From: a virus
Reading direction: 5' to 3' (one strand)
Virus record (IMG/VR): IMGVR_UViG_3300046652_000008
Location: 1 to 64,000 of that record
DNA length: 64,000 nt
The notes under the pieces are model-generated. The model had not been told where the DNA came from and made no database searches. It worked only from the letters and a program-made list of their open reading frames with translations. The position numbers were made by a program, and so were the translations under genes. Positions 1 through 18,063 of this stretch are shown piece by piece (the first letter of the stretch is position 1; each line of letters begins with the position of its first letter).

Positions 1-160
1 AGCTGGATCTTCGGACGCGCGCGCGTGTCCCGGTTTGCTAGGTCGATCATCATCTGTCCGATGGCTTCCTCCAGCGACGAGGCGGATGTTTCGTAGCTGC
101 GAACTCCATCGAGTTCAATCCATACGGTTACGCCGTCTTCTATTTCGCTGTAGTAGATGG

Positions 161-307
161 TCATGCCGCCTCCGCGCCCCAATTCGTTGGGATGTCGCCC
201 GCCGCGAAGCAATTTGCGTCGATGGTCTCGCCGCTCACGAGTTTGACGGGTCTTGACAGCTCTCCGGCATCCTCTCGGATCTCCGCTCCGCAACGTGGGC
301 AGGTCAC
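161..307 (-). CDS. Small CxxC hypothetical protein
   Basis: GTG start overlapping the upstream stop (GTGA); MTCPRCGAE. Confidence 0.5.
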   Translation of the reverse strand: MTCPRCGAEIREDAGELSRPVKLVSGETIDANCFAAGDIPTNWGAEAA

Positions 308-801
308 GGGTTCATCCCCCCCAACACACCGAAGATGTATTGGTTCCCGCTGTTCTGATTCACGGATGATCGGATGGTACGAACAGTGAGGCCGACCCAC
401 CATTTGCCGCGAACATCGTGCGTTGCCATCCCACCGCCAGACCAGTTCCAGCCGGTGTTGGGACCGCTCCAGGACGGACCAGCCGCCGCCGTACCATAGA
501 GCCTCCAGGAGCCCACGGTGAGGATCTTCTGCCCGACGCCGACACCGAGATTAGACGCTGTGGTGAATGGCTGGTAACTTGTCGGAACCACGTCGAAGAC
601 ACCAAAGGCATACGTGCCCATGGTGTTTTGCTCGCGGGCGTACAGCGCCGTGCCTGCGAATTGCTGAGACATATTGGCTGAGGCGGATTGGTTCCAGGAC
701 ATGCCGACGCCCCAGATGTTGAGCGGGTCCGTCGGGCTGAGTGTTTGCGCAAGGCCCGCGATGGCCGCGAGCAGGAGAAGTGAGAGGAGTTTGAGTTTCA
801 T
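304..801 (-). CDS. Exported beta-strand-rich protein, possible small outer-membrane beta-barrel
   Basis: Signal peptide MKLKLLSLLLLAAIAGLA|Q; amphipathic aromatic/Gly-rich strands. Confidence 0.6.
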   Translation of the reverse strand: MKLKLLSLLLLAAIAGLAQTLSPTDPLNIWGVGMSWNQSASANMSQQFAGTALYAREQNTMGTYAFGVFDVVPTSYQPFTTASNLGVGVGQKILTVGSWRLYGTAAAGPSWSGPNTGWNWSGGGMATHDVRGKWWVGLTVRTIRSSVNQNSGNQYIFGVLGGMNP

Positions 802-809
802 GGGGTCCT

Positions 810-1580
810 TTAGAGAAATCGAGCGCCTATTTTACCAGCCGTCTCCAGCCAAGAACGTACCTTTGCCCAGAGACTTTTGGGCTTAGCGATGTCGCTTGTA
901 ATTGAATGCACGTCCGCCGCGATCCCGTCCGCACTCTGGCCAACCTTCACCGCAGAGTCTGCAAGCTTGGGCGCGGCGTCGCGGACGGTCTTCATCGTCT
1001 GAGCGGCCTCAAGCATCGTAATCCGCGTTTGGGAGATGGTATCCCCTACGCGACGGAGTAGAACCGGGCTCGTCTTATTCACTGCTTCAATGGTTGGTTG
1101 GAAGGCGCGCGGCAGCGCCGCGTAAGCCGCTAGCGTGTCCGTGGCGCTGTCGGTGACCTTGGGAATGGTCTGATCTTTGACCACCACCAGCGCCTCATCC
1201 AGCGTCGTTGCAGCCTTGCCCAATTTCGCAACGGTATCGTTGCTGGATTTCACGAGAGTGATTGATGCGTCGGCCAACGCTTTCATCTTCGGCTCTTGCT
1301 GCTTGGCAATCTTGTTCGCGTCACCAGCCGTCTGTTTGATCTGGTTAGCCGCTCCGTCCGCATTCTTCAAGAATTCCTGAAAGATCCATAGAATTCCATC
1401 GTGATGGTTCGACTTTTTCCCCGCCAGCGCGACGTTGATTTTTTCGCCAGCCGCTTCCACCTGCTGAGCCGCGCGGTCTACGGAGTGGAAAAGCAACGAC
1501 AGAAAAACCAACGCTGGTATCAGCGCCACGCCGCACAAGCATCCGATCAGCCCGAGGGCGTTTTTGATTGCAGGTTTCAT
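810..1580 (-). CDS. Membrane-anchored coiled-coil protein (possible spanin-like or MCE-like helical protein)
   Basis: N-terminal TM segment followed by long Ala/Lys/Thr helical repeats; start overlaps the previous stop. Confidence 0.55.
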   Translation of the reverse strand: MKPAIKNALGLIGCLCGVALIPALVFLSLLFHSVDRAAQQVEAAGEKINVALAGKKSNHHDGILWIFQEFLKNADGAANQIKQTAGDANKIAKQQEPKMKALADASITLVKSSNDTVAKLGKAATTLDEALVVVKDQTIPKVTDSATDTLAAYAALPRAFQPTIEAVNKTSPVLLRRVGDTISQTRITMLEAAQTMKTVRDAAPKLADSAVKVGQSADGIAADVHSITSDIAKPKSLWAKVRSWLETAGKIGARFL

Positions 1581-3094
1581 TGGTACACCACATCGACCCA
1601 GTAGTTGGTCGAGTTCCATGTCGCTGTTGGGAACTTGTTTTTCCCGTAAACATAGACGCCATTACTTCCGTCTTGCCCATTTTTAAGAGCTGTCAGTGGA
1701 GCCGCAGTTACTCCAGATGTTGCAAAGTAGTTCACGCTGTCTGAGTAGTAACTCGCAGAGCTAACCGAGACTACGTAGGTAGTGTTAGCGGCAATGGAGA
1801 TCGGCGTGGCGAATAGCATTTGCTGCCAGCCGGAGGCCGTTTCCTTGGTGAACGTGATGCTTCCAAGCAGCGTGCCTGTGCGAGTCCAGAGATGTCCTAC
1901 GTGAGTTCCCGTGTTCTTTGAGCCCTTGTAGAAGCGCACGCCGGTAATATGTCCGGCCACACTAGAATTGAACTTCACGCCCACTTCGATGGCCGTTCCG
2001 TCTGAATCATTCGTGCTGGTCGGAGTCGCGCTGGATGGCCAGATGGAGCAAGGGCAAGTGGTTGTCGTGGCGGCTGTGAGCGCCAAAGAAGCGGTCGTGG
2101 ATGATCCGTTCAGACTGGCCGTGACGATACCCGTCTGTGTAGTCGCAATCGTTCCGGCTGTGACGATGAATGTGGCGGTTTTACTGCCCACCGCCACAGC
2201 GACTGATGTTGGCGTGGTCAAGAGCGCGGTGTTGTCGGATAACGTGACAGAGAGCCCACCCGTTGGGGCCGCGCTGCTCAATGTGACGGTACAACTGCTA
2301 CTAGCGCCGGAGTTTAAAGATGCCGGAGCACAAACCAATGCGGTCACCTTCACAAGTGGCGCAAGACTCAGGGAAGCTGTTTGAGTGCTGCCATTCAGGG
2401 CGGCTGTGACGACTGCCGTAAGTGGTGTGGCGACAGAGCCAGCCGTGGCCGTGAAGTGGCCTGTAGTCGAGTTGGCCGCGACCGTTGCACTGGCTGGGAC
2501 CGTGAGGCTGACGTTATTGCTCGTCAAACTGACAACGACTCCTCCAGCAGGGGCAGGCCCACTCAATATGACGGTACATGCGCTAGTGCCCGGTCCTGTT
2601 AAAGAAGATGGGGCACACGTAAGAGCGCTCACGGTCACAGTCGCTGGTACGGTCACCGTACCGCCCGACCCTGATGATGTGTTGGGCCATGCGTCAGCCA
2701 TGGCCGCGCTAGTGTTCGAGACTTTGATGGGGCGCGATAGAGCGCCGCCCGTGCTGAGGGTGAGCGCAGCAACTGCGATTGGCCCATCCTGAATAATTGT
2801 AGCGTTCATACCGGACAACAGACACACTAACTGGCCAGGAACCCCATAGCACGACAGTTGTTTTTTAACTGCCACTACCGAGTCGCTAGGAACGACGGAT
2901 ATCTTAGTGAAATCGGAGGGTGAGTATTCGAATGTCCATTGCACCGCAGCGGACCGCATAGCGTCCGATGTAAGGCTAAGCGTGAGATTTGCTGTGCCAC
3001 CAGCAGGTGTGGTAGTAGAGGATAGTGATAGTGTGGCCTGCGCATCGAGAGAAGCAGGCAGAAACAGGACCAGGAGGATGATAAGCGTGCGCAT
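1577..3094 (-). CDS. Secreted protein: cohesin-like domain, two Ig-like repeats, C-terminal DUF4082
   Basis: Signal peptide MRTLIILLVLFLPASLDA|Q; DUF4082 hallmarks IEVGVKF, ITGVRFYK, SGWQ, NYWVDV. Confidence 0.8.
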   Translation of the reverse strand: MRTLIILLVLFLPASLDAQATLSLSSTTTPAGGTANLTLSLTSDAMRSAAVQWTFEYSPSDFTKISVVPSDSVVAVKKQLSCYGVPGQLVCLLSGMNATIIQDGPIAVAALTLSTGGALSRPIKVSNTSAAMADAWPNTSSGSGGTVTVPATVTVSALTCAPSSLTGPGTSACTVILSGPAPAGGVVVSLTSNNVSLTVPASATVAANSTTGHFTATAGSVATPLTAVVTAALNGSTQTASLSLAPLVKVTALVCAPASLNSGASSSCTVTLSSAAPTGGLSVTLSDNTALLTTPTSVAVAVGSKTATFIVTAGTIATTQTGIVTASLNGSSTTASLALTAATTTTCPCSIWPSSATPTSTNDSDGTAIEVGVKFNSSVAGHITGVRFYKGSKNTGTHVGHLWTRTGTLLGSITFTKETASGWQQMLFATPISIAANTTYVVSVSSASYYSDSVNYFATSGVTAAPLTALKNGQDGSNGVYVYGKNKFPTATWNSTNYWVDVVYQ

Positions 3095-3098
3095 GAAT

Positions 3099-5489
3099 TT
3101 ATTTGGCTCCAATGTTAGGCGGGCTAGCAGTCGATACGCCCGCGATGTAGACGCCGGTGGCAATGGCAGGAGAGCTGCCCTGGAGCGTGAAGTCCGCTGT
3201 TGGTGAAGTAAGCAAAGGATCGGTAAACGGGCTTGAGTCCACGTTCGCGGCCCACCAGGAGTAATCCTGTTCCACACCGTTATAATAGAAAGTTCCGGTG
3301 CTAGAGTCGCTTCGGTAATATATGTTGTGGTCTATTGTCATCGCCGCTTGAGAGACGGACCATAAGATGTTCTTCGCGTTCAAAGCATAAAAGATGTTGT
3401 TCTTTATTTCTACCGAAGTTAGGTTGTCAACTAGCTGCATTTCAAGGGGGGCGTTACCTCCGACAGTCAGTGACTGCTGGTAGAACGTATTATTGTAAAT
3501 TTTAAGATCGACAGTTGCCGCTCCTGGGGTATCCTCAGATTCAGCAATTCCGTAATGGTTGCCGTAGATCAAGTTGTGGTGTATTGTAATTGCGATTGGT
3601 CGCGCTAGATTCTGCACCACGCCAATTCCCGCTAGTGTACTTGAATATAGAGTGTTGTTGTAGATAGATCCGCCATTGAAACGAGCAGAAATATCCGATC
3701 CAGCGATGGAACTGTATACAGTATTATCGTGAATCGTGACGTTGCTTGCATCCTGCCCCACGTACATTCCATGGCTGTATGGGTAAACACCATTAGTATC
3801 GTGGACCACGTTTCCGAAGATTGTAGTTCCATCATCGTAAACGCCGGGCCAAGTGACTATGATTCCGCCAGGGTATCCCCCGGAGAGCATCTGCCCTGGA
3901 TATAGGTCAGCCGTATAAGTAAGGGTGTTGTTGGAGACGACATTGCTCCCGCCCGCCAATTGTACTCCACCCGCTTGAGCATGGGAGATAGTGCTGCCGT
4001 TAACAATCGAGAAGCCTCCGGCAACTAAAACTGCAAGACCGTAAGTATATGAGATCGAACACCGTTGCATCGTTAGATGATCGGCGAAGATCATACCGTA
4101 TCCGTTCGACATTCTGAGATCAAGGTCTTGCACGGTTATGTTCGCTATCGACCCGTTTCCAAGCGGCCTTGTTCTCTGAGATGCCTCGATAGTGTGTCCA
4201 GATGGAGCAACATCACCCGCCAGCCGGATGTGTAATCGCGACGTTCCAGAATCATAATAGAAGGCTCCGGCAGGCAACGGAGCGAGACCGCTGGCAGGAG
4301 CAAGAGCCGTTCCGTTATCAACGACAAAGTATGGCTGAACCGCCGCAGTTGCGTAGTAATCCGTAAAGGTTCCGGTCGCCCCGCCCGGATAAGTCAGGCC
4401 GTATTGATAAATCTCCTGAATTTCCTCGTCCGTATACGGAGCCGGAGCAACAAACCACTCATCCCAGTTGGTAGTGGCGATTGATGTCCCATTGAACGTC
4501 AGCGAGTCTGCACTTGTCGTCAGGACAACGCCCCCAGACGTGGATACGTTGGTTTGCTTGACCCCATCAATCCAAAGAGATTTTTCATTGCTTCCGCCTG
4601 CCCCCGCCCGGTTGGTTCCGTTCCACCGAAATGCTATATGGTGCCAGCCCGATGTGGTGTAGGCGGCATTGGCTGAAAGAACCGCAGCGTTGGCGATAAG
4701 GACTTGTATTTGGTTAGCGGTCCCGCCAATTCGGAACCTCCACCCGCGAGTCGTTCCGTCTCCAAAATTGGCAATTGTCTGATAGGCGTTGCTCCCGGCT
4801 ACCAGATAGACCCATCCTCCGACCGTCGCAGCAGTGGTCGCGGCCTTGAATGGAAAGTTTGCTGAAAGCGAAGTGTAGCCCAAAGTTTGTACGTAGCAGC
4901 CAAAGGGAGTGTTGAGCGAGTAAATGCCTGCTGTTCCGAATCCGGCAGGATAACTGCCAGAGCGCGAACAAGATCCGCTGAGCCACGGTATATCGTTGCC
5001 ATTGGTACTTCCGTCAAGCGCTGGGCTGGATGCATCCTGAAACATCCACCACGAAGTTGGCTGGTCTCCGGTAGCGTCAGTTGTAAAGTCATGTCCGAGA
5101 GGATACGTTACGCTCTCCATTGTCCACGAACCGAAGATGTCGGCCCCCGTGATGATCGGCGCGACCCCCGCACCATACGCTCCGTAAGTGACATTTCCAA
5201 CGTTGTGCGTTAGTTGCTCCCGCCACAGCCCACCACGTTTGAAAGCGACGGACTGGCCAGAGGTGAGCGTGGTTCCGTTGACCTTGGCGATGGTCTGCCA
5301 CGGTGCGACGATCGTGCCGGCGTTGGAGTCCGCGCCGCCAGAGGAATCGACATAGTAAGTAAAGACCTGAGCAGATGATACGCCCACCACTGCATTCCCA
5401 GAAATCACAGTATGTCCAGTCGCCACGGTTTGGGCCTGTGCTGTCATTGTGAGACACAGGCAAATGGCAAGAAGAACCGAGAGTCTCAT
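3099..5489 (-). CDS. Secreted LamG/concanavalin-like plus right-handed beta-helix (pectin-lyase-like) protein
   Basis: Signal peptide ...TAQA|Q; YYVDSSGGADSNAGT..PWQTI; LamG motifs WHHIA, LWIDG; parallel beta-helix repeats; DFTLQGSSPAI..G..PNIGA C-terminus. Confidence 0.8.
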   Translation of the reverse strand: MRLSVLLAICLCLTMTAQAQTVATGHTVISGNAVVGVSSAQVFTYYVDSSGGADSNAGTIVAPWQTIAKVNGTTLTSGQSVAFKRGGLWREQLTHNVGNVTYGAYGAGVAPIITGADIFGSWTMESVTYPLGHDFTTDATGDQPTSWWMFQDASSPALDGSTNGNDIPWLSGSCSRSGSYPAGFGTAGIYSLNTPFGCYVQTLGYTSLSANFPFKAATTAATVGGWVYLVAGSNAYQTIANFGDGTTRGWRFRIGGTANQIQVLIANAAVLSANAAYTTSGWHHIAFRWNGTNRAGAGGSNEKSLWIDGVKQTNVSTSGGVVLTTSADSLTFNGTSIATTNWDEWFVAPAPYTDEEIQEIYQYGLTYPGGATGTFTDYYATAAVQPYFVVDNGTALAPASGLAPLPAGAFYYDSGTSRLHIRLAGDVAPSGHTIEASQRTRPLGNGSIANITVQDLDLRMSNGYGMIFADHLTMQRCSISYTYGLAVLVAGGFSIVNGSTISHAQAGGVQLAGGSNVVSNNTLTYTADLYPGQMLSGGYPGGIIVTWPGVYDDGTTIFGNVVHDTNGVYPYSHGMYVGQDASNVTIHDNTVYSSIAGSDISARFNGGSIYNNTLYSSTLAGIGVVQNLARPIAITIHHNLIYGNHYGIAESEDTPGAATVDLKIYNNTFYQQSLTVGGNAPLEMQLVDNLTSVEIKNNIFYALNAKNILWSVSQAAMTIDHNIYYRSDSSTGTFYYNGVEQDYSWWAANVDSSPFTDPLLTSPTADFTLQGSSPAIATGVYIAGVSTASPPNIGAK

Positions 5490-6478
5490 TTGATTATCAC
5501 CCCAGGATGACGTGCGATGGCGGCAGGAGGATGTCCCACGACAGAGACCGTAGTGCCAGACCCACCTCCGTAATTGGCGACGTATACAGAGTTATTGTGT
5601 GCATCGAACGCTGAGCGAGACGGGCCATTAAATCCCGTGATCGTTCCAGTGATGGACGCACCCGAGTCCAGGATCACAAAGGTCGTGGTGGTGCTGTTGT
5701 TTGGGACATAAATGGAATAATTGTTCGAGTCATAAGTCACGTCGATAGGCCCGGAGAACCCGGAGATTGTATCCGTGAGTGTAGTGCCCGAGTCGGCGAT
5801 ACTGTAGACCTTGGAGGCTCCGTTCGCTATGTAGACCTTGTTATTGTTCGAGTCAAACGCGACAAGTGCCGGGCTTATCATCGAGGTCACCGTGCCCGTG
5901 ATGGACGTGCCCGAGTCTAGAACCACCGAAACGGTGGTGCTTGTATTGTTAGCGACATACAGGGAGTTGTTGTGACTGTCAAAGGCAATCCCGTATGGCC
6001 CCGTGAACCCGGTGATTGTGCCGGTAATCGTCGTCCCCGAGTCCGCTACCACAGACACGGTATTTGCCGTGTTATTCGTCACATACAACGAATTATTGTT
6101 CGAGTCGAAGGCGATCCCCTTCGGCTTACTAAACCCTGTGATTGTGGCCGTGACGGTTGTTCCCGAGTCCGGGATCACAGAGACGCTGTTCCCGAATTCG
6201 TTGATCACGTAAACGGTGTTGTTGTGTGGGTCGAATACGCAGCCGAATGGGGAGGTGCCCATCCCTGTGATCGTGGCCGATACCGAGGTGCCCGAGTCGG
6301 GGATCACATAAACGCTGGTCCCTGACAGGCTCGTCACGTAAAGAGAGTTGTTGTGGGAGTCGTAGCAGATGCCATAGGGAGCAGTCAGCCCGGTCACTGT
6401 GCCTGTAATCGCGGTTCCCTGCCCCCAGGCAAAGCCTGCGGTGAGGATTAACCCGGCAAGAGTCGTTGAGAGTTTCAT
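5486..6478 (-). CDS. Secreted YncE/YVTN-type seven-bladed beta-propeller
   Basis: Signal peptide ...AGFAWG|Q; seven ~41-aa repeats P.GIAFDS.NN.LYV.N....VSV..DSG. Confidence 0.85.
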   Translation of the reverse strand: MKLSTTLAGLILTAGFAWGQGTAITGTVTGLTAPYGICYDSHNNSLYVTSLSGTSVYVIPDSGTSVSATITGMGTSPFGCVFDPHNNTVYVINEFGNSVSVIPDSGTTVTATITGFSKPKGIAFDSNNNSLYVTNNTANTVSVVADSGTTITGTITGFTGPYGIAFDSHNNSLYVANNTSTTVSVVLDSGTSITGTVTSMISPALVAFDSNNNKVYIANGASKVYSIADSGTTLTDTISGFSGPIDVTYDSNNYSIYVPNNSTTTTFVILDSGASITGTITGFNGPSRSAFDAHNNSVYVANYGGGSGTTVSVVGHPPAAIARHPGVIIK

Positions 6479-6483
6479 GCTTC

Positions 6484-8022
6484 TCATTGGGTGTTACCAG
6501 AGATTGTGGCTTTGCCAGAAATAACGCGAGTCGAGGTTTGCGCGGCGTTGATTGTAATACTGAATCCGGTTGGTGCTCCTGCTTGCGCGCCGGTCGCGTT
6601 CGTGGCGGTGGCGCTAATGGTTGAGGTGGCCGCCGTGGTTGGCGTGCCGCTGAGAACTCCTCCGCTCGATAGACTAAGCCCTCCAGGAACTCCAGTGGCC
6701 GTCCAGGTGATCGGAGTATCGCCCGTCGCCGCGAACGTGATCGAATAGGCCGAGCCTACCGTGCCTGCCGTGAGCGGTGATGTTGTGGTGATCGTCGGAA
6801 CTGTCCCGCCTGCTGAGATTTCAAAAGCCCCGGCGTCAGGGGCCGAACCTTGCGGCCTGGTTGTTCCGTATATGTCCGTGGCCGGATAGTTAGTTGGGTT
6901 CCCGGCATCCTTGGCGCATGTGTCGGAACTCTGAAGGGATGGGTTGGGCTGCACCCCTCCGACTGCCGGAGGAGAAAGCACCCACGTTGGGGTACAGCGT
7001 TTCGTGCTGGTTCCGCAGGTTGATCCACCCGACGCCGGGAAGATGTTATGATCCGCTGTTCCAGAGCCGCAAGTGCCGATTTCGCTGACAAATACGTTTC
7101 CTCTTACTATATAGGCAGACCCGGTACAGCCCGCGTCATTATTTACTGACGCGAAATCTATGTCGTTATATTGTATGATAACTCCAGAACAATTACCACG
7201 ACCAATCACAAGGTTATTTCCGGCGACGTATGGAGCGCCAAAATAGTTGTTTTGAATGATCCAAGACCCTGATATACCTTCAGTCATTATGTTGCTTGTA
7301 GCATTATTGTAAAAGATATTTCCGTCGATCAGGACATCGCTAGAACCTGGATAGTTCTGGAAGCCGTCCACATGCTGCCCTCCTGGACACGATCCAGAGT
7401 ATATGTCGGTTGTGATCCAGTCATGCACTATGTTGCTTTTGAATATGAGATGTGTTGGCTTAATTGCCAATTCAGGACCCCATCCCCAGAAATCAACAGC
7501 ATCCTCCGAGTTCCCCGCAATGCAGCCGTCTCCATTACCAAACTCGGAGTTTTGGACAGTCACTCCAGAAGAGGCTATCCAGGCACTAATACCATGCCAT
7601 CCATCAACAGATATATCCGTGAACTCAACACCAGTTGAATCCTGGATGTTTAAGGCGTGTCTGGCATTCATCCCACTACCCGCCGATATTATGCCAATCA
7701 CATGCACATGATCTATGTTGATAGTTAAATCGCCTGTCAGCAGGACCGAGCCGTTCGACTCCGCATAGTAACTTATGGCAGACGATTTCTGTGAAGAGGA
7801 AAGGGTCTGCGCCCCATACGTTCCGTTCTTGACGACGACCGTATCCCCAGCACTCGCCGCTGTTTGGGCGGCTTGCATGGAGGTACACGCCTGCGCGTCG
7901 ATGTACGAGCCCGGCGTAGATTGGCGTGTGCATGTACCTCCGTTGGTGTCAACCCACAGGTTTGCCGTGGTTGGCTGAGCCATGGCACAGGCTGCTAACA
8001 GAAATAGAGATATAATCCTCAT
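6484..8022 (-). CDS. Secreted beta-helix protein with choice-of-anchor-Q-like segment and putative Ig domain
   Basis: Signal peptide MRIISLFLLAACAMA|Q; H.DGFQ beta-helix motif; DIYGTTRPQGSAPDAGAFE; He_PIG-like PGGLSLSSGGVLSGTPT. Confidence 0.8.
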   Translation of the reverse strand: MRIISLFLLAACAMAQPTTANLWVDTNGGTCTRQSTPGSYIDAQACTSMQAAQTAASAGDTVVVKNGTYGAQTLSSSQKSSAISYYAESNGSVLLTGDLTINIDHVHVIGIISAGSGMNARHALNIQDSTGVEFTDISVDGWHGISAWIASSGVTVQNSEFGNGDGCIAGNSEDAVDFWGWGPELAIKPTHLIFKSNIVHDWITTDIYSGSCPGGQHVDGFQNYPGSSDVLIDGNIFYNNATSNIMTEGISGSWIIQNNYFGAPYVAGNNLVIGRGNCSGVIIQYNDIDFASVNNDAGCTGSAYIVRGNVFVSEIGTCGSGTADHNIFPASGGSTCGTSTKRCTPTWVLSPPAVGGVQPNPSLQSSDTCAKDAGNPTNYPATDIYGTTRPQGSAPDAGAFEISAGGTVPTITTTSPLTAGTVGSAYSITFAATGDTPITWTATGVPGGLSLSSGGVLSGTPTTAATSTISATATNATGAQAGAPTGFSITINAAQTSTRVISGKATISGNTQ

Positions 8023-8031
8023 GCTTTTCCC

Positions 8032-8769
8032 TTATGGAGCTATTGCTATCAGCGCTGCTTGCCATGGGTGGCTGCCAGAATTATTGTTGGTGATGGCTTT
8101 GTTTCCGGTGGCTCCGGCAGTCGCTAATGGTCCATCGCAGACGAACAATAGCGTAGTGTCGGCCTGATTTGCCCTTGTCGTAAAAGTCGGAGTTGTTCCA
8201 GTCGGCTTAACAAGCTGATTGGAAACGTCTCCCCAGTCTTGGTAGAATGCAACCACATAACTGTTGTTTGCTGCCGTAGTCAATCCCGTGGCGGTTGACG
8301 TTGTTCCCGCTCCGGTAGCTATGGTTGGATTGGGATTGATGGGGGTTGACGCATTGGCTCCTGAATAAGCGCCCATGTAAGCTAAGCTGGAGTTGGTGGC
8401 ATGTGTCACCACATAGCTTCCGGACTCGCTCGATGCCGTCTTCTTCCACGCGTAGCAATTCACGTTAAAACCGCTATCCGTGACGGAAGAGGGGAATCCT
8501 GTTAATGCGGTAAACCCTGTGGGCGGTGTTGCTGTGATTACCGAAGCGGCACCTACGCAAAAATAGATCAGCAGTAAATCACCGTTGGCAATTCCTGCCG
8601 GAGCCGTGATGGTAGTATTCGCGTGGCTCGCATAGTTCACCGTGGACGAACTTCGGTAGGCGACTGTTCCACCGCCACCAGTCGGGGTGAATAATTTTCG
8701 ATGACGCCCAACGATCTGAGCCTGCATTGACAGGCAGACGATCAGCGAGGAGAGGATCAGTCGTCTCAT
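8032..8769 (-). CDS. Secreted beta-sandwich protein, fibre-tip/adhesin-like
   Basis: Signal peptide MRRLILSSLIVCLSMQA|Q; PAGIANGDLLL..., AYSG motifs; start overlaps the upstream stop. Confidence 0.7.
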   Translation of the reverse strand: MRRLILSSLIVCLSMQAQIVGRHRKLFTPTGGGGTVAYRSSSTVNYASHANTTITAPAGIANGDLLLIYFCVGAASVITATPPTGFTALTGFPSSVTDSGFNVNCYAWKKTASSESGSYVVTHATNSSLAYMGAYSGANASTPINPNPTIATGAGTTSTATGLTTAANNSYVVAFYQDWGDVSNQLVKPTGTTPTFTTRANQADTTLLFVCDGPLATAGATGNKAITNNNSGSHPWQAALIAIAP

Positions 8770-10967
8770 CAGTATGTCCCCGTGACCACCCAAGTAGTTT
8801 GTTTGCTGGCTCCATCACTCACGAATGTAAAGTTGATGGCATCTCCGTTAGTAAGGGCCACACTCGCGCTTTGTGTGCCAGCCGCAATGGTGGATGAGCA
8901 GGTAATTGCTCCTGTCAGTAGTGCGCCCAATGTCACGCCAGCGGCATTCATGGTGCTTGACCCGGCGTTATCACTGAAGCACTTCAGCCCAGTCAATGTG
9001 ACGGTAACTCCGGTCGTGTTGTAGCAGAAACGTTGAAGGTAGGTACCGGCTGGCACTGCGTTCAGCCCGTCACCAAGCCCAGTCTCACAAGCCCATGTTT
9101 TGTACTGAGCGGCCATGCGAGCCGCAGCCAGAGTTCCGGTCACATCAGCACCGGAGAGATCCACCGCGCTGCTGGTGACCGTCTGTGTTGAACCTGCGAA
9201 GTGCGCGATGCCCACACCCGGAGAGGATGCTACTGCGCACGTCGCGCACGACACCGCTCCCGTTGTAGCGCTCACTGCAATCGGGCTTGTCCCCGTGGTG
9301 GCAACCGTGCCAGATGTATTCGGCCAGAGGATCGTTGGGGTTCCCGCCGCCGCCTGCGGGTTCACGGTAACCGTACCGCTCGTGTGGCCGGTCATCGTAA
9401 TGCTCGGCTCCGTAGTGCCGTAGTAGGCGAGCGCGATGGATCCAGCCGTCGTCCCACCAACCCCCGTGCTGATGCCGCCCTGCGTCGAGATATTGCCACC
9501 AGAGTCCACAGTGGTTGTTGCCGATGGCGTCTGGAGCGTTGTGGTGCCACCGCCAGTTACGAGCGCAGTGGATGCCAACGCGCCGCTTGAAACCACGGTC
9601 ACCGTGCCAGAACCCCCCGGAGTGGCGCACGTTCCATCCGATTTCAGGTAGCCTGAACAGGTTCCGCCACCGAAGATAGCGATGACATCAGACGCTGCCG
9701 CGTCGGTCAACGCGCCCGTCGTGACCGTATTTTTGACGATACCCGTGCCCAGCGTTGCCCAGTTCTGATTTGAAGATCCGAGCGTGAGCGTGGCTGTATT
9801 TGCAACTCCTGTGCCTCCGCTTCCAGCCACAAGCGTTGTGGATAGACCCGCTGCCGTGCCGCTCGTGCTTTGATTGAGCGTTGGGAAACTGGTCATGTTG
9901 GCTGCGCTCAATGCCGGAGCGTTGCCCAGAGTCGGAGCCTGCCCCGCTGCGCCAGTGCCGTGGCTGATGAGCACTTGATCGGTAGCTGCCGTGTTTGCAG
10001 TAACGAATAGCGTTGTGTCAGCAGCGGACTGATACGGGATCTTTCCAACAGTCCCGCCTACAAGATTCGTTGCCTTCGCAGCAGTTCCGCTGGTGGATTG
10101 ATTGAGCGTTGGGAAGTCGCCAGCAACTGCAATCGACGGAACCCCAGTGGCAATCGTGTTCTTTAAAATGCCTGTGGCCAGCCCAGACAGCAACGTACCG
10201 TTAATACCCACTACGGTGGTCGAGCCACCCGTGGACGTGCTCGTGGCATCGCCCGAGAGCGTCGTGAATGTGCCGCCTGGGGTGGAGCATGTTCCATCGA
10301 ACTTCAGGTAACCCGCGCTGCAAGTTGTCCACAACGCCACAATGTCACCATATGCCCCATTGGTCAGGGCACCTGTTGTGATAGTGTTTTTGACGATACC
10401 CGTGCCCAGCGTTGCCCAGTTCTGGTTTGAAGATCCGAGCGTCAGCGTGGCCGTGTTCGCAACTCCCGTGCCACCACTTCCAGCCACCAAAGTCGATGAC
10501 AGCCCAGCAGCCGTTCCGCTCGTGGATTGGTTCAATGTCGGAAAATCGCCAGCAACCGCAATCGACGGAACCCCAGTGGCAATCGTGTTCTTTAAAATGC
10601 CTGTGGCCAGCCCAGACAGCGATTGCCCATTGATGCGGACAACGCTTGTCGCCCCACCAGAAGAAGTGGAAGTTGCATCCCCACTTAATGCGGTAAACGA
10701 CCCACCACCCGACAAAACCCAGTCGGAGGCCACCGTGCATCCAGCCGCGTTATTGCAAGCATAAATATGACCGGACGTGTCTTGACAATCCTGCATGTAG
10801 ACACTAGTCGTGTTTCCGGGAGTGCCCACACATGCTTTGGTAGCCAATGCCGAAAAGTTGCTATTTATCTTGGTTCTCGCCGTTGGAAAACTCTCATTGT
10901 TGACGGTCTGGACGGATTGTGAAAATCCAGCAAGACAAAAAACCAAAAAACATGATGCTAATTTCAT
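8769..10967 (-). CDS. Fibre-like Gly/Thr/Ser-rich repeat protein with N-terminal signal peptide
   Basis: MKLASCFLVFCLAGFS|Q; ARTKINSNFSAL motif; GGTG and PTLNQSTSGTAA fibre repeats; paired Cys. Confidence 0.75.
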   Translation of the reverse strand: MKLASCFLVFCLAGFSQSVQTVNNESFPTARTKINSNFSALATKACVGTPGNTTSVYMQDCQDTSGHIYACNNAAGCTVASDWVLSGGGSFTALSGDATSTSSGGATSVVRINGQSLSGLATGILKNTIATGVPSIAVAGDFPTLNQSTSGTAAGLSSTLVAGSGGTGVANTATLTLGSSNQNWATLGTGIVKNTITTGALTNGAYGDIVALWTTCSAGYLKFDGTCSTPGGTFTTLSGDATSTSTGGSTTVVGINGTLLSGLATGILKNTIATGVPSIAVAGDFPTLNQSTSGTAAKATNLVGGTVGKIPYQSAADTTLFVTANTAATDQVLISHGTGAAGQAPTLGNAPALSAANMTSFPTLNQSTSGTAAGLSTTLVAGSGGTGVANTATLTLGSSNQNWATLGTGIVKNTVTTGALTDAAASDVIAIFGGGTCSGYLKSDGTCATPGGSGTVTVVSSGALASTALVTGGGTTTLQTPSATTTVDSGGNISTQGGISTGVGGTTAGSIALAYYGTTEPSITMTGHTSGTVTVNPQAAAGTPTILWPNTSGTVATTGTSPIAVSATTGAVSCATCAVASSPGVGIAHFAGSTQTVTSSAVDLSGADVTGTLAAARMAAQYKTWACETGLGDGLNAVPAGTYLQRFCYNTTGVTVTLTGLKCFSDNAGSSTMNAAGVTLGALLTGAITCSSTIAAGTQSASVALTNGDAINFTFVSDGASKQTTWVVTGTY
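9700..10700. repeat. Intragenic direct repeats in the fibre gene
   Basis: Near-identical ~70-bp blocks at ~10122-10191 and ~10552-10620; second repeat pair ~9730-9880 and ~10385-10535 (duplicated LSGLATGILKNTIATGVPSIAVAGDFPTLNQ and GSGGTGVANTATLTLGSSNQNWATLGTGIVKNT). Confidence 0.85.
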
Positions 10968-11393
10968 TTATGGAACCACCGGATTGTCAAATACGCCGCC
11001 AAGATCATCCCAATTGCCAGGAGCGGAATCCCACAAAAGCACCGATGGCGCAATGCTCTGCCCGCCCTGCGTCCACCTAGCCTGGAATACTAGGCCCTCG
11101 GCAGATGCGATAACCGTAAACCCGCCATACATATATATACCAAACTGTGCTACAATATCTACCATGGACGTTGCTAGAACATTTAGACTAACAAGCGTTT
11201 GTGGGGAAGACTGCTGATCTGCCATAGTAAAGGATATCGCCACGTTGGAAGTATTGCAAACAGATAAACACAGTAGGTCAACATCATAGTTTATGATTGC
11301 CGTTGTATCGGTAGGCACAGGTTGCATTGGAAGTTTAACCTGATATGTTAGACTTGGAGCATCGCAGTTCACCGCTGAATAATTGTTTGGCAT
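10968..11393 (-). CDS. Hypothetical beta-rich protein without signal peptide; possible virion adaptor
   Basis: First gene of the fibre operon; Trp/Asp-rich C-terminal tail WDSAPGNWDDLGGVFD. Confidence 0.55.
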   Translation of the reverse strand: MPNNYSAVNCDAPSLTYQVKLPMQPVPTDTTAIINYDVDLLCLSVCNTSNVAISFTMADQQSSPQTLVSLNVLATSMVDIVAQFGIYMYGGFTVIASAEGLVFQARWTQGGQSIAPSVLLWDSAPGNWDDLGGVFDNPVVP

Positions 11394-11421: not shown

Positions 11422-11925
11422 TTACATTCCCCTAATCTTAGCTATTTTGCGCTTTATTGCATCACGCTTGAGGGAACTAATCCGGTCTAGAAATAGCTTT
11501 CCGTCCATGTGGTCTATCTCGTGCTGAACTACCCGCGCCAGCAACCCTGTCGCATGAACCACCCTAGCGTTGAAAAACTCGTCTTCGTATACTAGGTCAA
11601 TCTCTTTCGTGCGCTCCACTAACTCATAAAATCCGGGAATGGATAAGCAACCCTCTTTACAGATGAACTTTCCGTGCCCACTCGGGACAGTTGGGTTAAC
11701 AAGCACAAGCCTATCCTTTGGATTTTCTCCGCATGATATGTCAATCGTTGCTATCCTTTTAGGAACGCCTATCTGTATGGCCGAAAGCCCATAGGCCCCA
11801 TATTCGCGCATCGTGGCAAACATCCGCTTAACTAGGTCTGGGATCATGGGCTTGTCTACGTCCAACAATTGGACCGACTCTGATCTCAAAAGTTCATCAC
11901 CATAGATTAAGAGTTTGTCTACCAT
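11422..11925 (-). CDS. def: Peptide deformylase
   Basis: Motifs GLSAIQIG, EGCLS, QHEIDHMDG. Confidence 0.95.
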   Translation of the reverse strand: MVDKLLIYGDELLRSESVQLLDVDKPMIPDLVKRMFATMREYGAYGLSAIQIGVPKRIATIDISCGENPKDRLVLVNPTVPSGHGKFICKEGCLSIPGFYELVERTKEIDLVYEDEFFNARVVHATGLLARVVQHEIDHMDGKLFLDRISSLKRDAIKRKIAKIRGM

Positions 11926-12003: not shown

Positions 12004-13068
12004 TCAGATGATAGAACTGCCTGCGTATTGCTTCCACTGCGTTATCCCCTGCTGGTTATACGCCTTCAGCGACTTCATGCCATTACTGGCGGAATTCTTA
12101 TCATTAAGTAACTTAATCCCAACATTTGCTATGCTCCCGGTGTCGTCAAAACTAGCTTTCCAGTTATTCGGAACCCAGTGTATGGCATCGCTCACTACAC
12201 TTGGAACGCCCTCTGCTATCCCATCTGCCGTAACATTACAAAAACTTTCCGTATAGCTAGGAGAAAGCAATAGATGCTGGCTCTTCACATAAGACCTAAA
12301 CTGCGGCCAAGTCATCCATCCAGCCTCTATAAGCTTTACATCTAGGAGCCCGTTTAACAACTCCCGGATTGCTCCAAGCGTGCTCTGCCCGCCCTCAATC
12401 CTGCCGCTATTGATTGATACCTCGCATCGCACGTTCAGGGTCCTAGCTATCTGCAATGCGGCCCACGCAGCCGTAAGCATGTTTTTTTGTGGGCGCATAG
12501 CTCCGAATATGCCAATCTTTAGCGTGTCCCCATGCCTATATATCGACGGAGGTGCCGGAACGCTTTGAATGTAATATAGGTTTGGCAACCATACGGCTGG
12601 CCGATGGAATCCGTTTTTTACCGCGTTAACCAAGCGGGTTGAGTTTGCGGCTAGATGGAAATTGTGGTTAGACATTTCTAGCTCCATTTGCTCCCGCAAT
12701 AGCTGAACGGCGTATCTGTCCGCTTGCAAAAAACCGACATTGCTGTGAAAGGTTATTGCGAATGCGATATGCGGATACTTTCTTACCAAAGCCTGTAAAA
12801 ATGGAGTATCTACCCATGGGGCAAACATAACAACGTGTGTGTATGTTGATCCAGGCAGAACCTTATCCCTCAACTCGTATCCGTCGAATACGCCGACTAC
12901 CCGCACCTTTACCCCGGCGTCCATAAGCACCTTGGCTGAATTCATGGCCGTTACGCCAAGCCCAACATGGCTGCCGGATAGCCTATTTCCAGCCATGTTT
13001 TTGTATACAAATAGAAAACTATACTTGTCTTCTGGCGTTCTCTTGGGGGAACTATATGAGATGTTCAT
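12004..13068 (-). CDS. Glycosyltransferase, GT4 (GT-B) family
   Basis: GIFGAMRPQKN and LLSPSYTESFCNVTADGIAEGVPSVVS; start taken at MNISYS just after the portal stop. Confidence 0.8.
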   Translation of the reverse strand: MNISYSSPKRTPEDKYSFLFVYKNMAGNRLSGSHVGLGVTAMNSAKVLMDAGVKVRVVGVFDGYELRDKVLPGSTYTHVVMFAPWVDTPFLQALVRKYPHIAFAITFHSNVGFLQADRYAVQLLREQMELEMSNHNFHLAANSTRLVNAVKNGFHRPAVWLPNLYYIQSVPAPPSIYRHGDTLKIGIFGAMRPQKNMLTAAWAALQIARTLNVRCEVSINSGRIEGGQSTLGAIRELLNGLLDVKLIEAGWMTWPQFRSYVKSQHLLLSPSYTESFCNVTADGIAEGVPSVVSDAIHWVPNNWKASFDDTGSIANVGIKLLNDKNSASNGMKSLKAYNQQGITQWKQYAGSSII

Positions 13069-13069
13069 C

Positions 13070-14929
13070 CTATCCGTTCTTCTGATCTGCCGTCCGTGGC
13101 CCTCTGCCAGTAGCGCCTTGCCCAATCCCCGCTTGCGACTGAGCCGCCAACTCCTGCATAATCCTGTCAATATCGCCTTGATCCTTACCCATCACCCTTA
13201 GAAGCTCTGGGATGCTGGTAAGCCCCATCTTCGCTAGAGAGCTGGCCTCTATGATCTTGCTTTGTTGAGCATCGCCGCGCAATGAACCAGGGGACACACT
13301 AAATGTATAATTCTTCCAATAGCTATCCTTTTGCTCAGACGCTGGAATTAGATTATCGCCATTGTATTCAAAGTCTTGCATCGTAATTCCATCTTCACCA
13401 AGCATATACATTCTCTGCTTAGTGTTGTAGAATTGGATTACGTTGCTGACGGCCTGAATCCCAGTATCCCTCAAGAACGCTTCAAGGTATCGCTCTTCCA
13501 GTTTGACTGGCATTTGCAGAGAATCGCGCATCTGCTCCAGTGTGTCGCCACCTGGGACTTGATTCTTGCGAGACATTCCGGCCACGTCAACAATCCCGCT
13601 AATGCGATCCATCTGTGGGCTAATATAGTTGGCCAACATTTCATAGACATACGGTTGCAGGGATGGCGTCTGCGCGTATTGAATATCGGTAGCTGGGTTT
13701 CCCATCGGCCCTAGAAGTAACTTCTCTCCAGGCTTGTCTTGCTGGAAGGCTTGCCATGTGGAATTTACAACAGCGCTGGTCTTGCTTATGAGCACGGGAA
13801 ACAGGTTCCTGCTTATCATGTCCATGATGCCAGCCCCAATCTCATTAAGCGCCTGCTGCATCGGCAACAGACTCCGGTAAGAAGACAGCCCATAGAATGA
13901 CCACGGAACTGGATTAAGCCGCAAACATGCGAATGGAAACAGCCCATGCCAATACGGATTAGGGCCATCATACATTATTTGATTATTTGCAAAAACGATC
14001 AGGCGCTTTCTGGGGTATAGCCTCTCCCCAGGCTTAACCTCATACCACCAGTTATGCCGATCCAGTGAAAGATACGGATCTGCCACAATTACAGTTTCTT
14101 TTGAATCGTTAAGCGTAGTATCGTCAACGTAGTATTCTTCTAGCTCAATTCCTCCGAAGTTCCAGCCGTTGACAGAGGGGGCAACCTTCCCGCCAAACAG
14201 CCTTTGTAGGTTAGGGGCAAGGGCGTTCCAAGTATGACCACTCATTTCCTCCGGTTGACTATACTCCGCTGAAGAATCTGATGCTTGAGGAATGTGGTCG
14301 TTGCCAAGGCGAATCTTGTCAGCGCGAAACGGGAATACCTTGCGGAAGTAGTTCAGCGGCTTCCATGTTCGATACAAAACAGCGAAAGAATCCTGGATAT
14401 GGAATCCGGGTTGTATGGGCAATACCTGATCTGGGCCGCAAGGTATCAGTCGCATACTACCCGGAGATGCGGCACCTATCTTCCAGAAAGATGTGCCCCA
14501 AAGCATCCCTATATCCACAGCCGAAACGAGCGATAGGTCCATGTCTTGCCGGGTCCACTCAGCACGGAGAACCTTCCCTATCAGGTCGCCAGACTCCCTC
14601 ATGGCGTCTACGCCAGTCTGCACGTTGATAATGGGTCTGGAGTCGCTTAGCAACGCCAGCTTGTCGCGCCTAGCGGCCTCCATGCGGTTATCCACGAATC
14701 TGCTACGATGCCGCTTGCGGCTGCCACTCCACTGGTTCCCCTCTAGATACGATACATACTTGTTTACGTTAGAGAATTCAGGGCTAGAACGAGCAGTGCG
14801 AAATGCTTCCTCGCGCAGTACGGCCTTGTACTCGCGCATCTTCTCTTCATAGGCCCGCGTTACGGACTCAGACAGGAGTGCTTCTTTATCAAATACGGAG
14901 CGATGTGGAGCGCGGGGAATTTCTTGCAC
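13070..14929 (-). CDS. Portal protein (P22-like family)
   Basis: 619 aa near terL; YLEGNQW, GTSFWKIG, PNPYWHGLFPF, SFYGLS..LLPMQQALN, DRISGI motifs. Confidence 0.85.
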   Translation of the reverse strand: MQEIPRAPHRSVFDKEALLSESVTRAYEEKMREYKAVLREEAFRTARSSPEFSNVNKYVSYLEGNQWSGSRKRHRSRFVDNRMEAARRDKLALLSDSRPIINVQTGVDAMRESGDLIGKVLRAEWTRQDMDLSLVSAVDIGMLWGTSFWKIGAASPGSMRLIPCGPDQVLPIQPGFHIQDSFAVLYRTWKPLNYFRKVFPFRADKIRLGNDHIPQASDSSAEYSQPEEMSGHTWNALAPNLQRLFGGKVAPSVNGWNFGGIELEEYYVDDTTLNDSKETVIVADPYLSLDRHNWWYEVKPGERLYPRKRLIVFANNQIMYDGPNPYWHGLFPFACLRLNPVPWSFYGLSSYRSLLPMQQALNEIGAGIMDMISRNLFPVLISKTSAVVNSTWQAFQQDKPGEKLLLGPMGNPATDIQYAQTPSLQPYVYEMLANYISPQMDRISGIVDVAGMSRKNQVPGGDTLEQMRDSLQMPVKLEERYLEAFLRDTGIQAVSNVIQFYNTKQRMYMLGEDGITMQDFEYNGDNLIPASEQKDSYWKNYTFSVSPGSLRGDAQQSKIIEASSLAKMGLTSIPELLRVMGKDQGDIDRIMQELAAQSQAGIGQGATGRGPRTADQKNG

Positions 14930-15870: not shown

Positions 15871-18063
15871 TTAGTTGTAATCCCAATCAAATCCCTTGCT
15901 TTCATCGCTGATAAAGTCTTCCGGGTCAGCGTCTTTGTTAAGGATCTTCTCGACGTATTTTTTACTCCCAGGCGGTGGCGGCGCGAAATTCTTCTGGCCG
16001 GATATGCGGATGCTCCCACACTTGGGGCAATTATCCTCGTCGTTTGGTATTTCTGCGCCCCACTTCTCTTGGCACATATCGCAATACATGATCCAAGGAG
16101 ACGACTCTATGGATGATTTTTTGATTGGTATGAACCCTAACGTATCATCCCAGTCAGACTCGTGAGCGCAATATAGGCAGATTAGCCCCGCCATCACCGT
16201 ATCGTCTTTGAACTTCTTGCTAGCCCCAACGTTGTTAAGGTTCTGTACTCGATCATCCTCTCGCCGGAAAGTTCGCATCTCACTAGCGAATTTGGGATCT
16301 CTCACGAACCAGCGTTTTGTCCGTAAAAACCTGATAGCATTGATGATAATCTTGGGCTTATTGACATGATCAGTCTGGAAGCCGCACACGTTCGTTTGCA
16401 TCTTAGATGTATCTATGTTTATCTTACGATATAGATTAGGGTATTGAAGCTGTAGCTTTAGATAATCAGCCGTTGTACGCGGCCCCGTGATCTCGCACGC
16501 TATTTGCGCTTCATTGTACCACGAGGCTATCTTTGCGCCTTGTATTGCCAAATCAACAGCATCAATAGTGCTAGAGCGTAGAGTGCAAATGTGAACATCA
16601 AATCCACCCTTCCGATTCACCCTGTTAACCCAGATTACAGAGTTATCCTGCCCAACCCCGTTAGATGGATCTATTGACACGTAGTACTCGGCGTCGCGTT
16701 TAGGTGGTTCCCAGACCTGTATTATCTTTGTATCGTCTTCGTGCTCCTGCTTACACCCCTCTATGCAGCAATGCCCATCTTTATTGATACCGTGAAAGTT
16801 GTTATCAGCGTCAAAAAAACCAACAATGGGCGCAGGGAAGGACTTAGCGTTTACGAAATCTAGGCACTCGTCTGGGAATACTGATTCCCCCGATATAATG
16901 AATGCTGACTTGGCGGAAACAGCTAGCTCCTGTTCTACCCGCTTCTTGTCTGGAGCATTGTCGTACTCGTTTTCCATGAAGTACATTTGCTCTTTGGTTA
17001 GATGATAAATGTGGAGTACGCCTTTATTACAAACTAGACACTCAAACCCCTCACGGTCAATATGCCCAAAGAATCTATCATGGAACCTCCCGCACAATGG
17101 GTTATCGCACTTCACCCACTCGTTCTCTACGGTATCTTTAATGTCTAATGTTTTAACGCGAGGAATCCAGCCATTAGGTGGCGCAAGTACGCGGGTCTTT
17201 TCAAAGAAGAACGGCAGGAAACGTGGTTGCCATTCTGCACGCTCTGCCATATCCACCATGCGATCCCAGAGGTCATTCCCATACCCGCCAGCGCCCTTAG
17301 CTGTAGACTCTAGGATAGCAATCGTTTCTGGAGAGTTTACGAGAGCGTACTTTAACTCCTCTTCTATCACACGTTTAGGGTCCATGTAGCTATCAAATTC
17401 ACTTAAATGAACGCCATTTAAGCGCATTCCCATGCCAACACCCGTGAGCTTATTGGCCCACTGGACGTTCATAGTGGAATTTATTCCTGGGCGTTTTTTC
17501 GGATCTTCGCCAAATGGCGTATCGAAAATAATGCCTTTCTTGATCTCAAAAGATCGCACATCTGGCTTTAGCCACAACGGTAGTTTTGAGTATATTGAGT
17601 GCATGTACCGAAAAAGGTACGCCGCGTGTTCCTGCTCCCACGACACAACCAATCCAGCACGATTAGGGAAGAATGCCGTCAGCCAAAGCATAATCGCTTC
17701 GATCAAAAGTGAGCAGCCAAGTTGACGGCTTTTGATGATGAGGATCTTTTGCGGCTTGCCCTTGGCTTTCATGTCGGCCATTGCCTCAAGGACTAGCTCT
17801 TGCGACTCCCAGAGGGTAAATAACTTATCCCTGCCGTCCTTGTCAACAATCCAGAAATAGTTCTTAGCTGCGTACCGAAAGTCGCTGCATATCGCGTCTA
17901 ATTCAGCCGTAATGGTGTCTATCTCGTTACGGTTGCATAGTGAGTAGAACTCAAACAGGTCTGTTACGCCTTCAAACTTACCCGTCTCGAAGTATTCTAT
18001 TAAGTCCCTAACTTCTGGATCTTGGCAGTCCCTGTATTCAGGACGATGGATAATGATGGCCAT
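15871..18063 (-). CDS. terL: Terminase large subunit
   Basis: Walker A ILIIKSRQLGCS, Walker B HLSEF, ESTAKG coupling motif, RNase H-like nuclease YYVSIDPSNGVGQDNS ... KDDTVMA. Confidence 0.92.
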   Translation of the reverse strand: MAIIIHRPEYRDCQDPEVRDLIEYFETGKFEGVTDLFEFYSLCNRNEIDTITAELDAICSDFRYAAKNYFWIVDKDGRDKLFTLWESQELVLEAMADMKAKGKPQKILIIKSRQLGCSLLIEAIMLWLTAFFPNRAGLVVSWEQEHAAYLFRYMHSIYSKLPLWLKPDVRSFEIKKGIIFDTPFGEDPKKRPGINSTMNVQWANKLTGVGMGMRLNGVHLSEFDSYMDPKRVIEEELKYALVNSPETIAILESTAKGAGGYGNDLWDRMVDMAERAEWQPRFLPFFFEKTRVLAPPNGWIPRVKTLDIKDTVENEWVKCDNPLCGRFHDRFFGHIDREGFECLVCNKGVLHIYHLTKEQMYFMENEYDNAPDKKRVEQELAVSAKSAFIISGESVFPDECLDFVNAKSFPAPIVGFFDADNNFHGINKDGHCCIEGCKQEHEDDTKIIQVWEPPKRDAEYYVSIDPSNGVGQDNSVIWVNRVNRKGGFDVHICTLRSSTIDAVDLAIQGAKIASWYNEAQIACEITGPRTTADYLKLQLQYPNLYRKINIDTSKMQTNVCGFQTDHVNKPKIIINAIRFLRTKRWFVRDPKFASEMRTFRREDDRVQNLNNVGASKKFKDDTVMAGLICLYCAHESDWDDTLGFIPIKKSSIESSPWIMYCDMCQEKWGAEIPNDEDNCPKCGSIRISGQKNFAPPPPGSKKYVEKILNKDADPEDFISDESKGFDWDYN

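Follow-up and report, generated by a model that had tools for sequence, protein, structure and literature searches.

The 64,000-nucleotide window analyzed here, the first 64 kb of a single linear viral contig of 94,919 bp without terminal repeats (IMG/VR record IMGVR_UViG_3300046652_000008), carries a block of nine late genes on its minus strand (304-11393), most of which appear to encode proteins made for export. The phage comes from peat soil and is probably one of Acidobacteriota. Export of the block products by Sec is highly probable, and it is likely that those bearing leaders fold in the periplasm, so that the block would encode proteins that act outside the cytoplasm. Judged from sequence and predicted structure, its contents are mixed and include a phage-type fibre, proteins of cellular type, an anchored helical protein and an outer-membrane barrel. 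The block is a swappable late-gene cassette, and its swap between relatives is observed directly.

Signal peptides and export

Leaders were recognized on the 732-, 245-, 512-, 333-, 796-, 505- and 165-amino acid (aa) products by a rule-based script (n-, h- and c-region criteria, no trained predictor); each has a Lys/Arg n-region, a hydrophobic core of 10-15 residues and a small residue at -1. Of the other two products, that of 256 aa begins with a transmembrane (TM) anchor and that of 141 aa has neither anchor nor leader. The script thus reproduced the seven Sec leaders among nine genes, with an anchored eighth, that had been proposed in an earlier, sequence-only reading of this DNA. Gln occupies +1 in all seven block leaders and in 10 of 10 leaders genome-wide; a lipobox Cys is found at +1 in none of the seven. 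Elsewhere on the 94.9-kb contig, clear signal peptides occur on 3 of about 110 other open reading frames (ORFs), an enrichment in the block (7/9 versus 3/~110) with a Fisher p of 7e-8.

The three additional leader-bearing proteins also have Gln at +1. The largest, of 654 aa (77271-79235, plus strand), is a tailspike homologue of pectate-lyase-like type; its first 120 aa match a 1181-aa leader protein of a relative, G003, in which this protein and a second leader protein of 238 aa lie after the neck genes. Of the others, one is a Cys-containing 152-aa protein (90246-90704, minus strand) whose gene lies in the far-end structural operon; the second has 120 aa, 7 of them Cys (window 34517-34879, minus strand).

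Gln at +1 was published as a rule of the Bacteroidota in a 2018 paper that does not mention Acidobacteriota (PMC5837995). In an Acidobacteriaceae metagenome-assembled genome (MAG; G004, loci L075-L094), an unbiased script found Gln at +1 in 16 of 23 predicted signal peptides, and from these predictions the "Bacteroidetes Q-rule" seems to hold in Acidobacteriaceae too. A Bacteroidota host as the sole option was rejected, because Shine-Dalgarno motifs are enriched (29% vs 1%) and the Acidobacteriaceae MAG shares the +1 Gln. These motifs and the MAG's +1 Gln habit, together with the similarity of the terminase to those of Tunturiibacter phages, fit an Acidobacteriota host.

Cysteine content was examined as a second mark of export. 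The mature products contain 14 (732 aa), 3 (245 aa), 10 (512 aa), 2 (330 aa), 3 (796 aa), 8 (505 aa) and 0 (165 aa) Cys; the paired cysteines of the sequence-only reading hold for four of the six Cys-containing mature proteins (14, 10, 2 and 8), and the counts of the other two are odd. Signal peptides were called in 59 of 120 listed homologues of the 732-aa protein, by a script that gave a bonus for Gln at +1, and the +1 figure from these homologues is thus not independent. Among the leader-bearing homologues that contain Cys, 52 of 53 have an even number, as against 28 even and 11 odd among the leaderless ones, and Cys density is 1.56 per 100 aa in the mature leader-bearing proteins versus 0.66 in the leaderless (p = 1e-7). 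Such parity is expected of fully disulfide-bonded extracytoplasmic proteins. The full leader layout with its invariant +1 Gln, Q19 of the 165-aa family (below), the habit of the MAG and the Cys parity of the fibre homologues together argue for export, a step that had been proposed from the sequence and is now well supported.

The block as part of the phage genome

A long late operon on the minus strand comprises the large terminase gene (terL; 15871-18063), a P22/SU10-type portal gene (13070-14929), a glycosyltransferase (GT)-like ORF, a peptide deformylase gene (pdf) and then the nine-gene block. The junctions within the block, of 0, -1, +9, -4, -4, +4, -4 and +8 nt, leave its genes tightly packed or overlapping, and lengths, coordinates and junctions all agree with the nine consecutive, coupled ORFs originally described.

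Three features would suit an origin of the block as host DNA, a prophage flank or a chimeric assembly: it lies at the contig end, its GC content is 54-57% compared with about 48% elsewhere, and the Logan contigs break at 9738-10591. However, this break, the sole one in the block, coincides with an internal repeat of the 732-aa gene, and the first 377 nt of that gene lie on one 30.6-kb contig with the 141-aa gene, pdf and the portal gene; linkage of the block to terL rests on the assembled contig and not on the 30.6-kb contig. The GC excess lies mostly in codon position 2 and stems from Gly/Ala/Thr/Ser-rich proteins, and GC at the third codon position (GC3) is clearly raised only in the 333-aa (0.68), 256-aa (0.66) and 165-aa (0.73) genes. 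In three peat metagenome runs, almost all of the block is present, with a read depth equal to that of the portal region; a fourth run has part of it. An independent relative keeps the order portal, pdf, 141-aa homologue, leader-bearing proteins, scaffold and capsid. With equal depth on both sides and the gene order of the relative, the block is borne out as phage DNA; the misassembly of host sequence against which the sequence-only reading had warned was not found, and an origin of that kind is now highly improbable.

The relative in question, G002, has a portal protein 89% identical to that of this phage and was independently assembled. Its portal gene is followed by lysis-like genes, pdf, a gene for a 149-aa homologue of the 141-aa protein, a cassette of leader-bearing proteins, and the scaffold and major capsid genes. 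The cassette encodes three such proteins, of 710, 456 and 908 aa, that differ from the proteins of this phage.

The 732-aa fibre and its N-terminal module

Two repeats of about 140 aa, of the PTLNQSTSGTA type, occur in the 732-aa protein. Among the 783 homologues are proteins that begin like ordinary phage fibres or have a Collar or S74 domain; the repeats also recur in one annotated "tail fiber protein" of the phage collection and in very large surface proteins of cells from many phyla. By its sequence relationships the 732-aa protein is a phage-type fibre. At 9738-10591 the two near-identical repeats break short-read unitigs in three runs, and the repeat copy number could differ between strains. 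Sequence searches of the PDB with the 796-, 512- and 732-aa proteins gave nothing useful.

Directly behind the predicted cleavage site of the 732-aa protein stands FPTARTKINSNFSAL. The leader and the FPTARTKINSNFSAL module (35% identity over about 60 residues) also head the 456-aa protein of G002, which is otherwise unrelated, so that a search among related phages for a signal peptide joined to a KINxNF motif, as the sequence-only reading had proposed, did find the architecture a second time. Compared with gp9-type N-termini, the 732-aa and 456-aa N-termini give an hhalign E value of 2e-4 and a probability of 45% over 27 columns, with the core GDxLR...KINxNFxxL. The likeness to the T4 gp9/gp10 N-terminal domain (PF07880) is thus that a KINxNF-type motif begins the mature chain; the difference is that T4-type proteins begin with the domain itself and have no leader. 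The motif does sit where it had been described, after the cleavage site, but the resemblance to gp9/gp10 is weak and does not extend to membership in the PF07880 profile family; the link to T4 is a tentative lead at the level of the motif.

A precedent for a gp9/gp10-type domain behind a leader was found on a Chryseolinea chromosome (locus L019), where a prophage tail module has a tape measure and baseplate hubs followed by a 1123-aa protein in the position of a fibre. Its leader spans 23 residues (AFAQ|QQ or AFA|QQQ), and position 1 of T4_gp9_10_N falls on residue 24; the N-terminus matches that Pfam family at E 4e-4 and PHROG 677 at E 3e-8. Both fibre-position proteins of this prophage (L019 6453-12566), of 1123 and 913 aa, begin with leaders.

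Assembly of tailed phages is, by textbook account, cytoplasmic, and together with the baseplate-type domain that follows a leader in this tail module it could be taken to mean that the leaders do not export a functional pool, i.e., that assembly occurs in the cytoplasm and the leader is a temporary membrane tether or is cut by another protease. All leaders of the block, however, have the full n-, h- and c-region layout, the small -1 residue and the +1 Gln of host secreted proteins. Q19 is invariant in the 165-aa family, the even Cys numbers of the leader-bearing homologues argue for oxidative folding, and the predicted fold of the 165-aa product would require an outer membrane. Leaders that serve assembly within the cytoplasm are therefore considered unlikely, and export is retained.

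The other products of the block

Four of the remaining exported proteins (512, 333/330, 796 and 505 aa) resemble those of cells more than those of virions. Best homologues of the 333/330-aa propeller are cellular, at no more than 44% identity; the 796-aa beta-helix protein has one weak match among 50,697 phage records; the 505-aa protein matches DUF4082 at E 7e-50; and the 245-aa protein has, in its C-terminal part, a weak likeness to the end of PHROG 6813, whose function is unknown. This last is the sole significant PHROG match in the block, and no block protein matches a PHROG family of virion function. Among the domains that had been read from the translations, Beta_helix (796 aa), YVTN/NHL (330 aa), He_PIG with choice-of-anchor Q (512 aa) and DUF4082 (505 aa) were recovered, but LamG gave no Pfam match at E <= 0.01.

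The 256-aa protein weakly matches DUF948; its derivation as a paralogue of the genome's other DUF948-like gene was rejected on comparison. For the 165-aa protein, an AlphaFold2 model (pLDDT 79) has a leader helix and eight long strands, and the top rows of a VIA-align search with it are the membrane barrels OmpW, OprF, OmpA, NspA and PagL (Z 12.3-13.6), with soluble barrels lower. No Pfam (including Ail_Lom and OMP_b-brl), NCBIfam or PHROG match was obtained, and the chain ends in ...GGMNP, with no C-terminal aromatic beta-signal. The signal peptide and Q19 are invariant across 22 homologues, and the family is present in seven unrelated viral contigs in varied contexts. By this model, the 165-aa product is an eight-stranded outer-membrane barrel and cannot be a fibre. 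Phage-borne proteins of this kind exist, lambda Lom among them. Like the Lom-type proteins, the 165-aa protein is a leader-bearing, eight-stranded barrel that closes a fibre-type gene block; it differs in having no Pfam Ail_Lom match, and prophage expression is not known for it. The genes for the 256-aa anchored helical protein and the 165-aa barrel (304-1580) are 8 nt apart and both GC3-raised, a layout that recalls a putative spanin-like, envelope-spanning pair in which a barrel replaces the lipoprotein.

At the other end of the block, the 141-aa protein is predicted (pLDDT 82) to have a jelly-roll fold and a disordered tail, and the fold has matches among many small phage proteins, including two named as virion proteins. 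Its family comprises about 72 small proteins, has no PHROG match and shows no relation to the small genes that follow the capsid gene in relatives; when viral contigs were scanned with the 141-aa protein as the sole query, nothing was returned. The homologue in G002 (48% identity) is encoded just upstream of the exported cassette. From the predicted fold, a role of the 141-aa protein as a virion-side dock is possible.

In the sequence-only reading, all seven exported proteins formed one branched, disulfide-bonded receptor-binding complex, added at lysis through the 141-aa dock. The genes are indeed tightly coupled behind a conserved, phage-type jelly-roll gene, and branched multi-spike complexes are known in other podoviruses, CBA120 and G7C. 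Yet the 165-aa barrel and the 256-aa anchored protein would be envelope proteins, the domain families of the others are of cell type, and no docking module was found that is common to the other block proteins or to the relative's cassette. A single complex of this kind is not supported and is judged very unlikely.

Comparable systems

The cultured Cellulophaga podovirus phi18:3 (NC_021794) provides the closest experimental parallel. Its gp085, gp086 and gp087 (547, 785 and 559 aa) have classical leaders with Gln at +1 and are named virion, structural and tail proteins "based on experimental MS/MS proteomics analysis" in the RefSeq record (MS/MS, tandem mass spectrometry). As in the block, these are consecutive, large, late leader-bearing proteins, encoded there beside lysis and packaging genes. 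The differences are that virion MS/MS annotation exists there and genes alone here, that the host belongs to the Bacteroidota, and that the three proteins have few Cys (0, 1 and 3).

Tunturi_1 (PP887698.1), a cultured Acidobacteria podophage, shares the likely host phylum and has five leader-bearing late proteins: gp12, gp13, gp14 ("tail spike"), gp16 and gp17 ("virion structural protein"). These contain 20, 10, 21, 2 and 32 Cys, as compared with 0-7 in its leaderless structural proteins. Its terminase is among the best cultured-phage matches to that of the peat phage, at only 24% identity; its leader-bearing proteins have no BLASTP similarity to the block, and their genes lie between a tail protein gene and the lysis cassette and not between portal and scaffold. 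The paper on Tunturi_1 makes no mention of signal peptides or proteomics. The trait is not universal in hosts that follow the Q-rule, since the fibres of Cellulophaga phage phi38:1 are leaderless.

Two further systems resemble the block in part. The MAT fibres of Bdellovibrio (PMC10769870) are phage-tail-fibre-like trimers in which a signal peptide precedes a conserved N-terminal domain and the tips vary, but they are displayed by a cellular predator and many have an S74 chaperone-protease, not found here. Phages of Porphyromonas gingivalis have Q-rule genes of unknown function in which predicted cleavage exposes Gln; these are five scattered genes of temperate phages, with no mention of fibres or tail parts, and they were interpreted as outer-membrane modifiers (PMC10367356). 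Literature searches turned up no account of tailed-phage fibres or spikes that bear leaders.

Virion parts, cargo or both

The explanation favoured here, with a little less than an even chance, is a mixed one in which the fibre, perhaps with partners, docks on particles after lysis, the glycan-type proteins are attached or free, and the last two genes serve the envelope. Block genes would be co-transcribed with the head genes, and their products would pass through the inner membrane unfolded, have a leader of 15-22 aa removed in front of a Gln that probably becomes pyroglutamate, form disulfides and meet finished particles only at cell lysis. The conserved N-terminal module of the 732-aa fibre would then probably dock on the particle, possibly on the 141-aa jelly-roll protein; the beta-helix, propeller, Ig-like and DUF4082 proteins would bind or cut surface glycans, riding on the fibre or free; and the 256-aa anchored protein and the 165-aa barrel would be proteins of the infected-cell envelope and not virion parts. 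Docking on virions is favoured by the MS/MS annotation of the leader-bearing phi18:3 proteins, the weak gp9/gp10-like motif and the Chryseolinea prophage fibre. Addition to virions, as first proposed, thus has a precedent and a motif in its favour, and has against it the cell-type families and a slot outside the tail module.

Several observations weigh against docking and the folding route that leads to it. Odd Cys counts occur among the mature block proteins, a pattern less clean than that of the fibre homologues. Residues 1-90 of the 732-aa protein have no Pfam or PHROG match at E < 0.1, and its N-terminus gave no BLASTP alignment with the gp9-like prophage N-terminus. The propeller, choice-of-anchor Q/He_PIG, beta-helix and DUF4082 proteins belong to families typical of the cellular surface. 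The position of the block, between portal and scaffold/capsid beside pdf and outside the tail module, fits accessory cargo; more distant relatives (45% portal identity) have small genes only in the portal-scaffold interval, and in the 86 kb of G001, one of these relatives, no large leader-bearing protein is seen. Finally, MS/MS of purified particles, as for phi18:3, may detect co-purifying proteins.

Much of this evidence would be accommodated if no product joined the particle and the block were accessory cargo, i.e., exported enzymes and binders that are released at lysis or reside in the envelope, where they would strip, mask or bind surface polysaccharide or receptors and so help progeny to escape through the matrix or lessen superinfection or loss on debris. 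The portal-scaffold slot next to pdf and the GT-like gene, the cellular-surface families (YVTN, choice-of-anchor Q, DUF4082 and He_PIG), the lack of a virion-function PHROG match, the raised GC3 of three genes and the existence of a relative without such genes all suit cargo. So do the moron-like distribution of the 165-aa barrel family in unrelated viral contigs, the similar reading of the P. gingivalis phage genes (PMC10367356), and the presence elsewhere in the genome of a leaderless virion protein homologous to Tunturi gp31 and to a 2034-aa protein of a relative. On the other side, the predicted late expression coupled to head genes would come at a poor time for exclusion, and a signal peptide by itself takes a protein to the periplasm but not to the cell surface. 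The N-terminal module of the fibre is conserved, the fibre repeats are common to true tail fibres, and the leader-bearing proteins of phi18:3 were annotated from virion MS/MS. Cargo alone is a serious candidate, held as somewhat less probable than even, and the mixed explanation is preferred.

A stronger and more general form of docking would be a two-compartment route shared by this lineage, Tunturi_1 and phi18:3, in which heads and tails are made in the cytoplasm and Sec-exported, pyroglutamate-bearing and disulfide-bonded fibres and glycan-cutting spikes snap on at lysis via an N-terminal module and a jelly-roll dock. From the sequences at hand this route is possible, though less likely than not.

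Gene content and flanks of the block

Table 1. Genes of the exported block and the gene immediately upstream (window coordinates)
Feature	Position	Strand	Remarks
141-aa protein	10968..11393	-	No signal peptide; predicted jelly-roll core, residues 18-109; disordered Trp/Asp-rich tail
732-aa fibre-like protein	8769..10967	-	Predicted 16-aa signal peptide S|Q, then FPTARTKINSNFSAL, 4-Cys knot, repeats, Cys-containing C-terminal domain
245-aa exported protein (predicted)	8032..8769	-	Signal peptide A|Q; no Pfam match
512-aa exported protein (predicted)	6484..8022	-	Signal peptide A|Q; choice-of-anchor Q and He_PIG Ig-like domain
333/330-aa exported YVTN/NHL beta-propeller (predicted)	5486..6487	-	Signal peptide G|Q
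796-aa exported right-handed beta-helix protein (predicted)	3099..5489	-	Signal peptide AQA|Q
505-aa exported protein (predicted)	1577..3094	-	Signal peptide A|Q; Ig-like repeats; C-terminal DUF4082
256-aa protein	810..1580	-	N-terminal TM anchor; long helical Ala/Lys/Asp-rich body
165-aa exported 8-stranded beta-barrel, outer-membrane type (predicted)	304..801	-	Signal peptide and predicted fold
Peptide deformylase (pdf)	11422..11925	-	Conserved upstream neighbour of the 141-aa gene here and in relative G002

A scan for promoter-like and terminator-like sites gave the level of shuffled sequence. The block genes are coupled to their neighbours; the criterion of a moron is its own promoter and terminator.

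In the closest relative, pdf (locus L003, 14111-14614) also adjoins the 141-aa homologue and the exported cassette; a link between deformylation and the mass synthesis of leader-bearing proteins is speculation. The GT-like ORF (388 aa, 12004-13170) has a weak glycosyltransferase-1 match and, if read from its TTG start, overlaps the end of the portal gene by about 100 nt. At its site, the closest relative has three different genes, one of them lysozyme-like.

The contig is incomplete, with ORFs cut at both ends (window 1-293, minus strand, and contig 94033-94917). The ORF that runs off the start (3-293, minus strand) has an N-terminus, MTIYYSEIEDG...EEAI, that recalls HicB-type antitoxins, which we take as a putative assignment. 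In run X2, a contig extends 1029 nt past position 1. Scaffold and major capsid genes, which directly follow the exported block in the closest relative, are absent from the contig, and a truncated ORF of 294 aa and an ORF of 607 aa at the far end match the C-terminus of a relative's 2034-aa protein and Tunturi_1 gp31; both observations point to a stretch missing between the contig ends. Neither the far-end structural genes nor the giant proteins of relatives could be assigned a function by PHROG or Pfam.

Implications for phage assembly and phage-host conflict

Particles of tailed phages are thought to be finished in the cytoplasm. If it is true that fibres or spikes of this phage mature in the periplasm, assembly would gain an extra, post-lysis step, and the disulfides and blocked N-terminus may be features for harsh soils. 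The prediction, expression and engineering of receptor-binding proteins would then change for phages of soil and of Bacteroidota. Even on a more modest reading, more than one-tenth of the genome would be spent on exported, glycan-acting proteins that are swapped as cassettes, a sign that phage-host conflict at the surface of peat Acidobacteriota has a layer that is still under-described.

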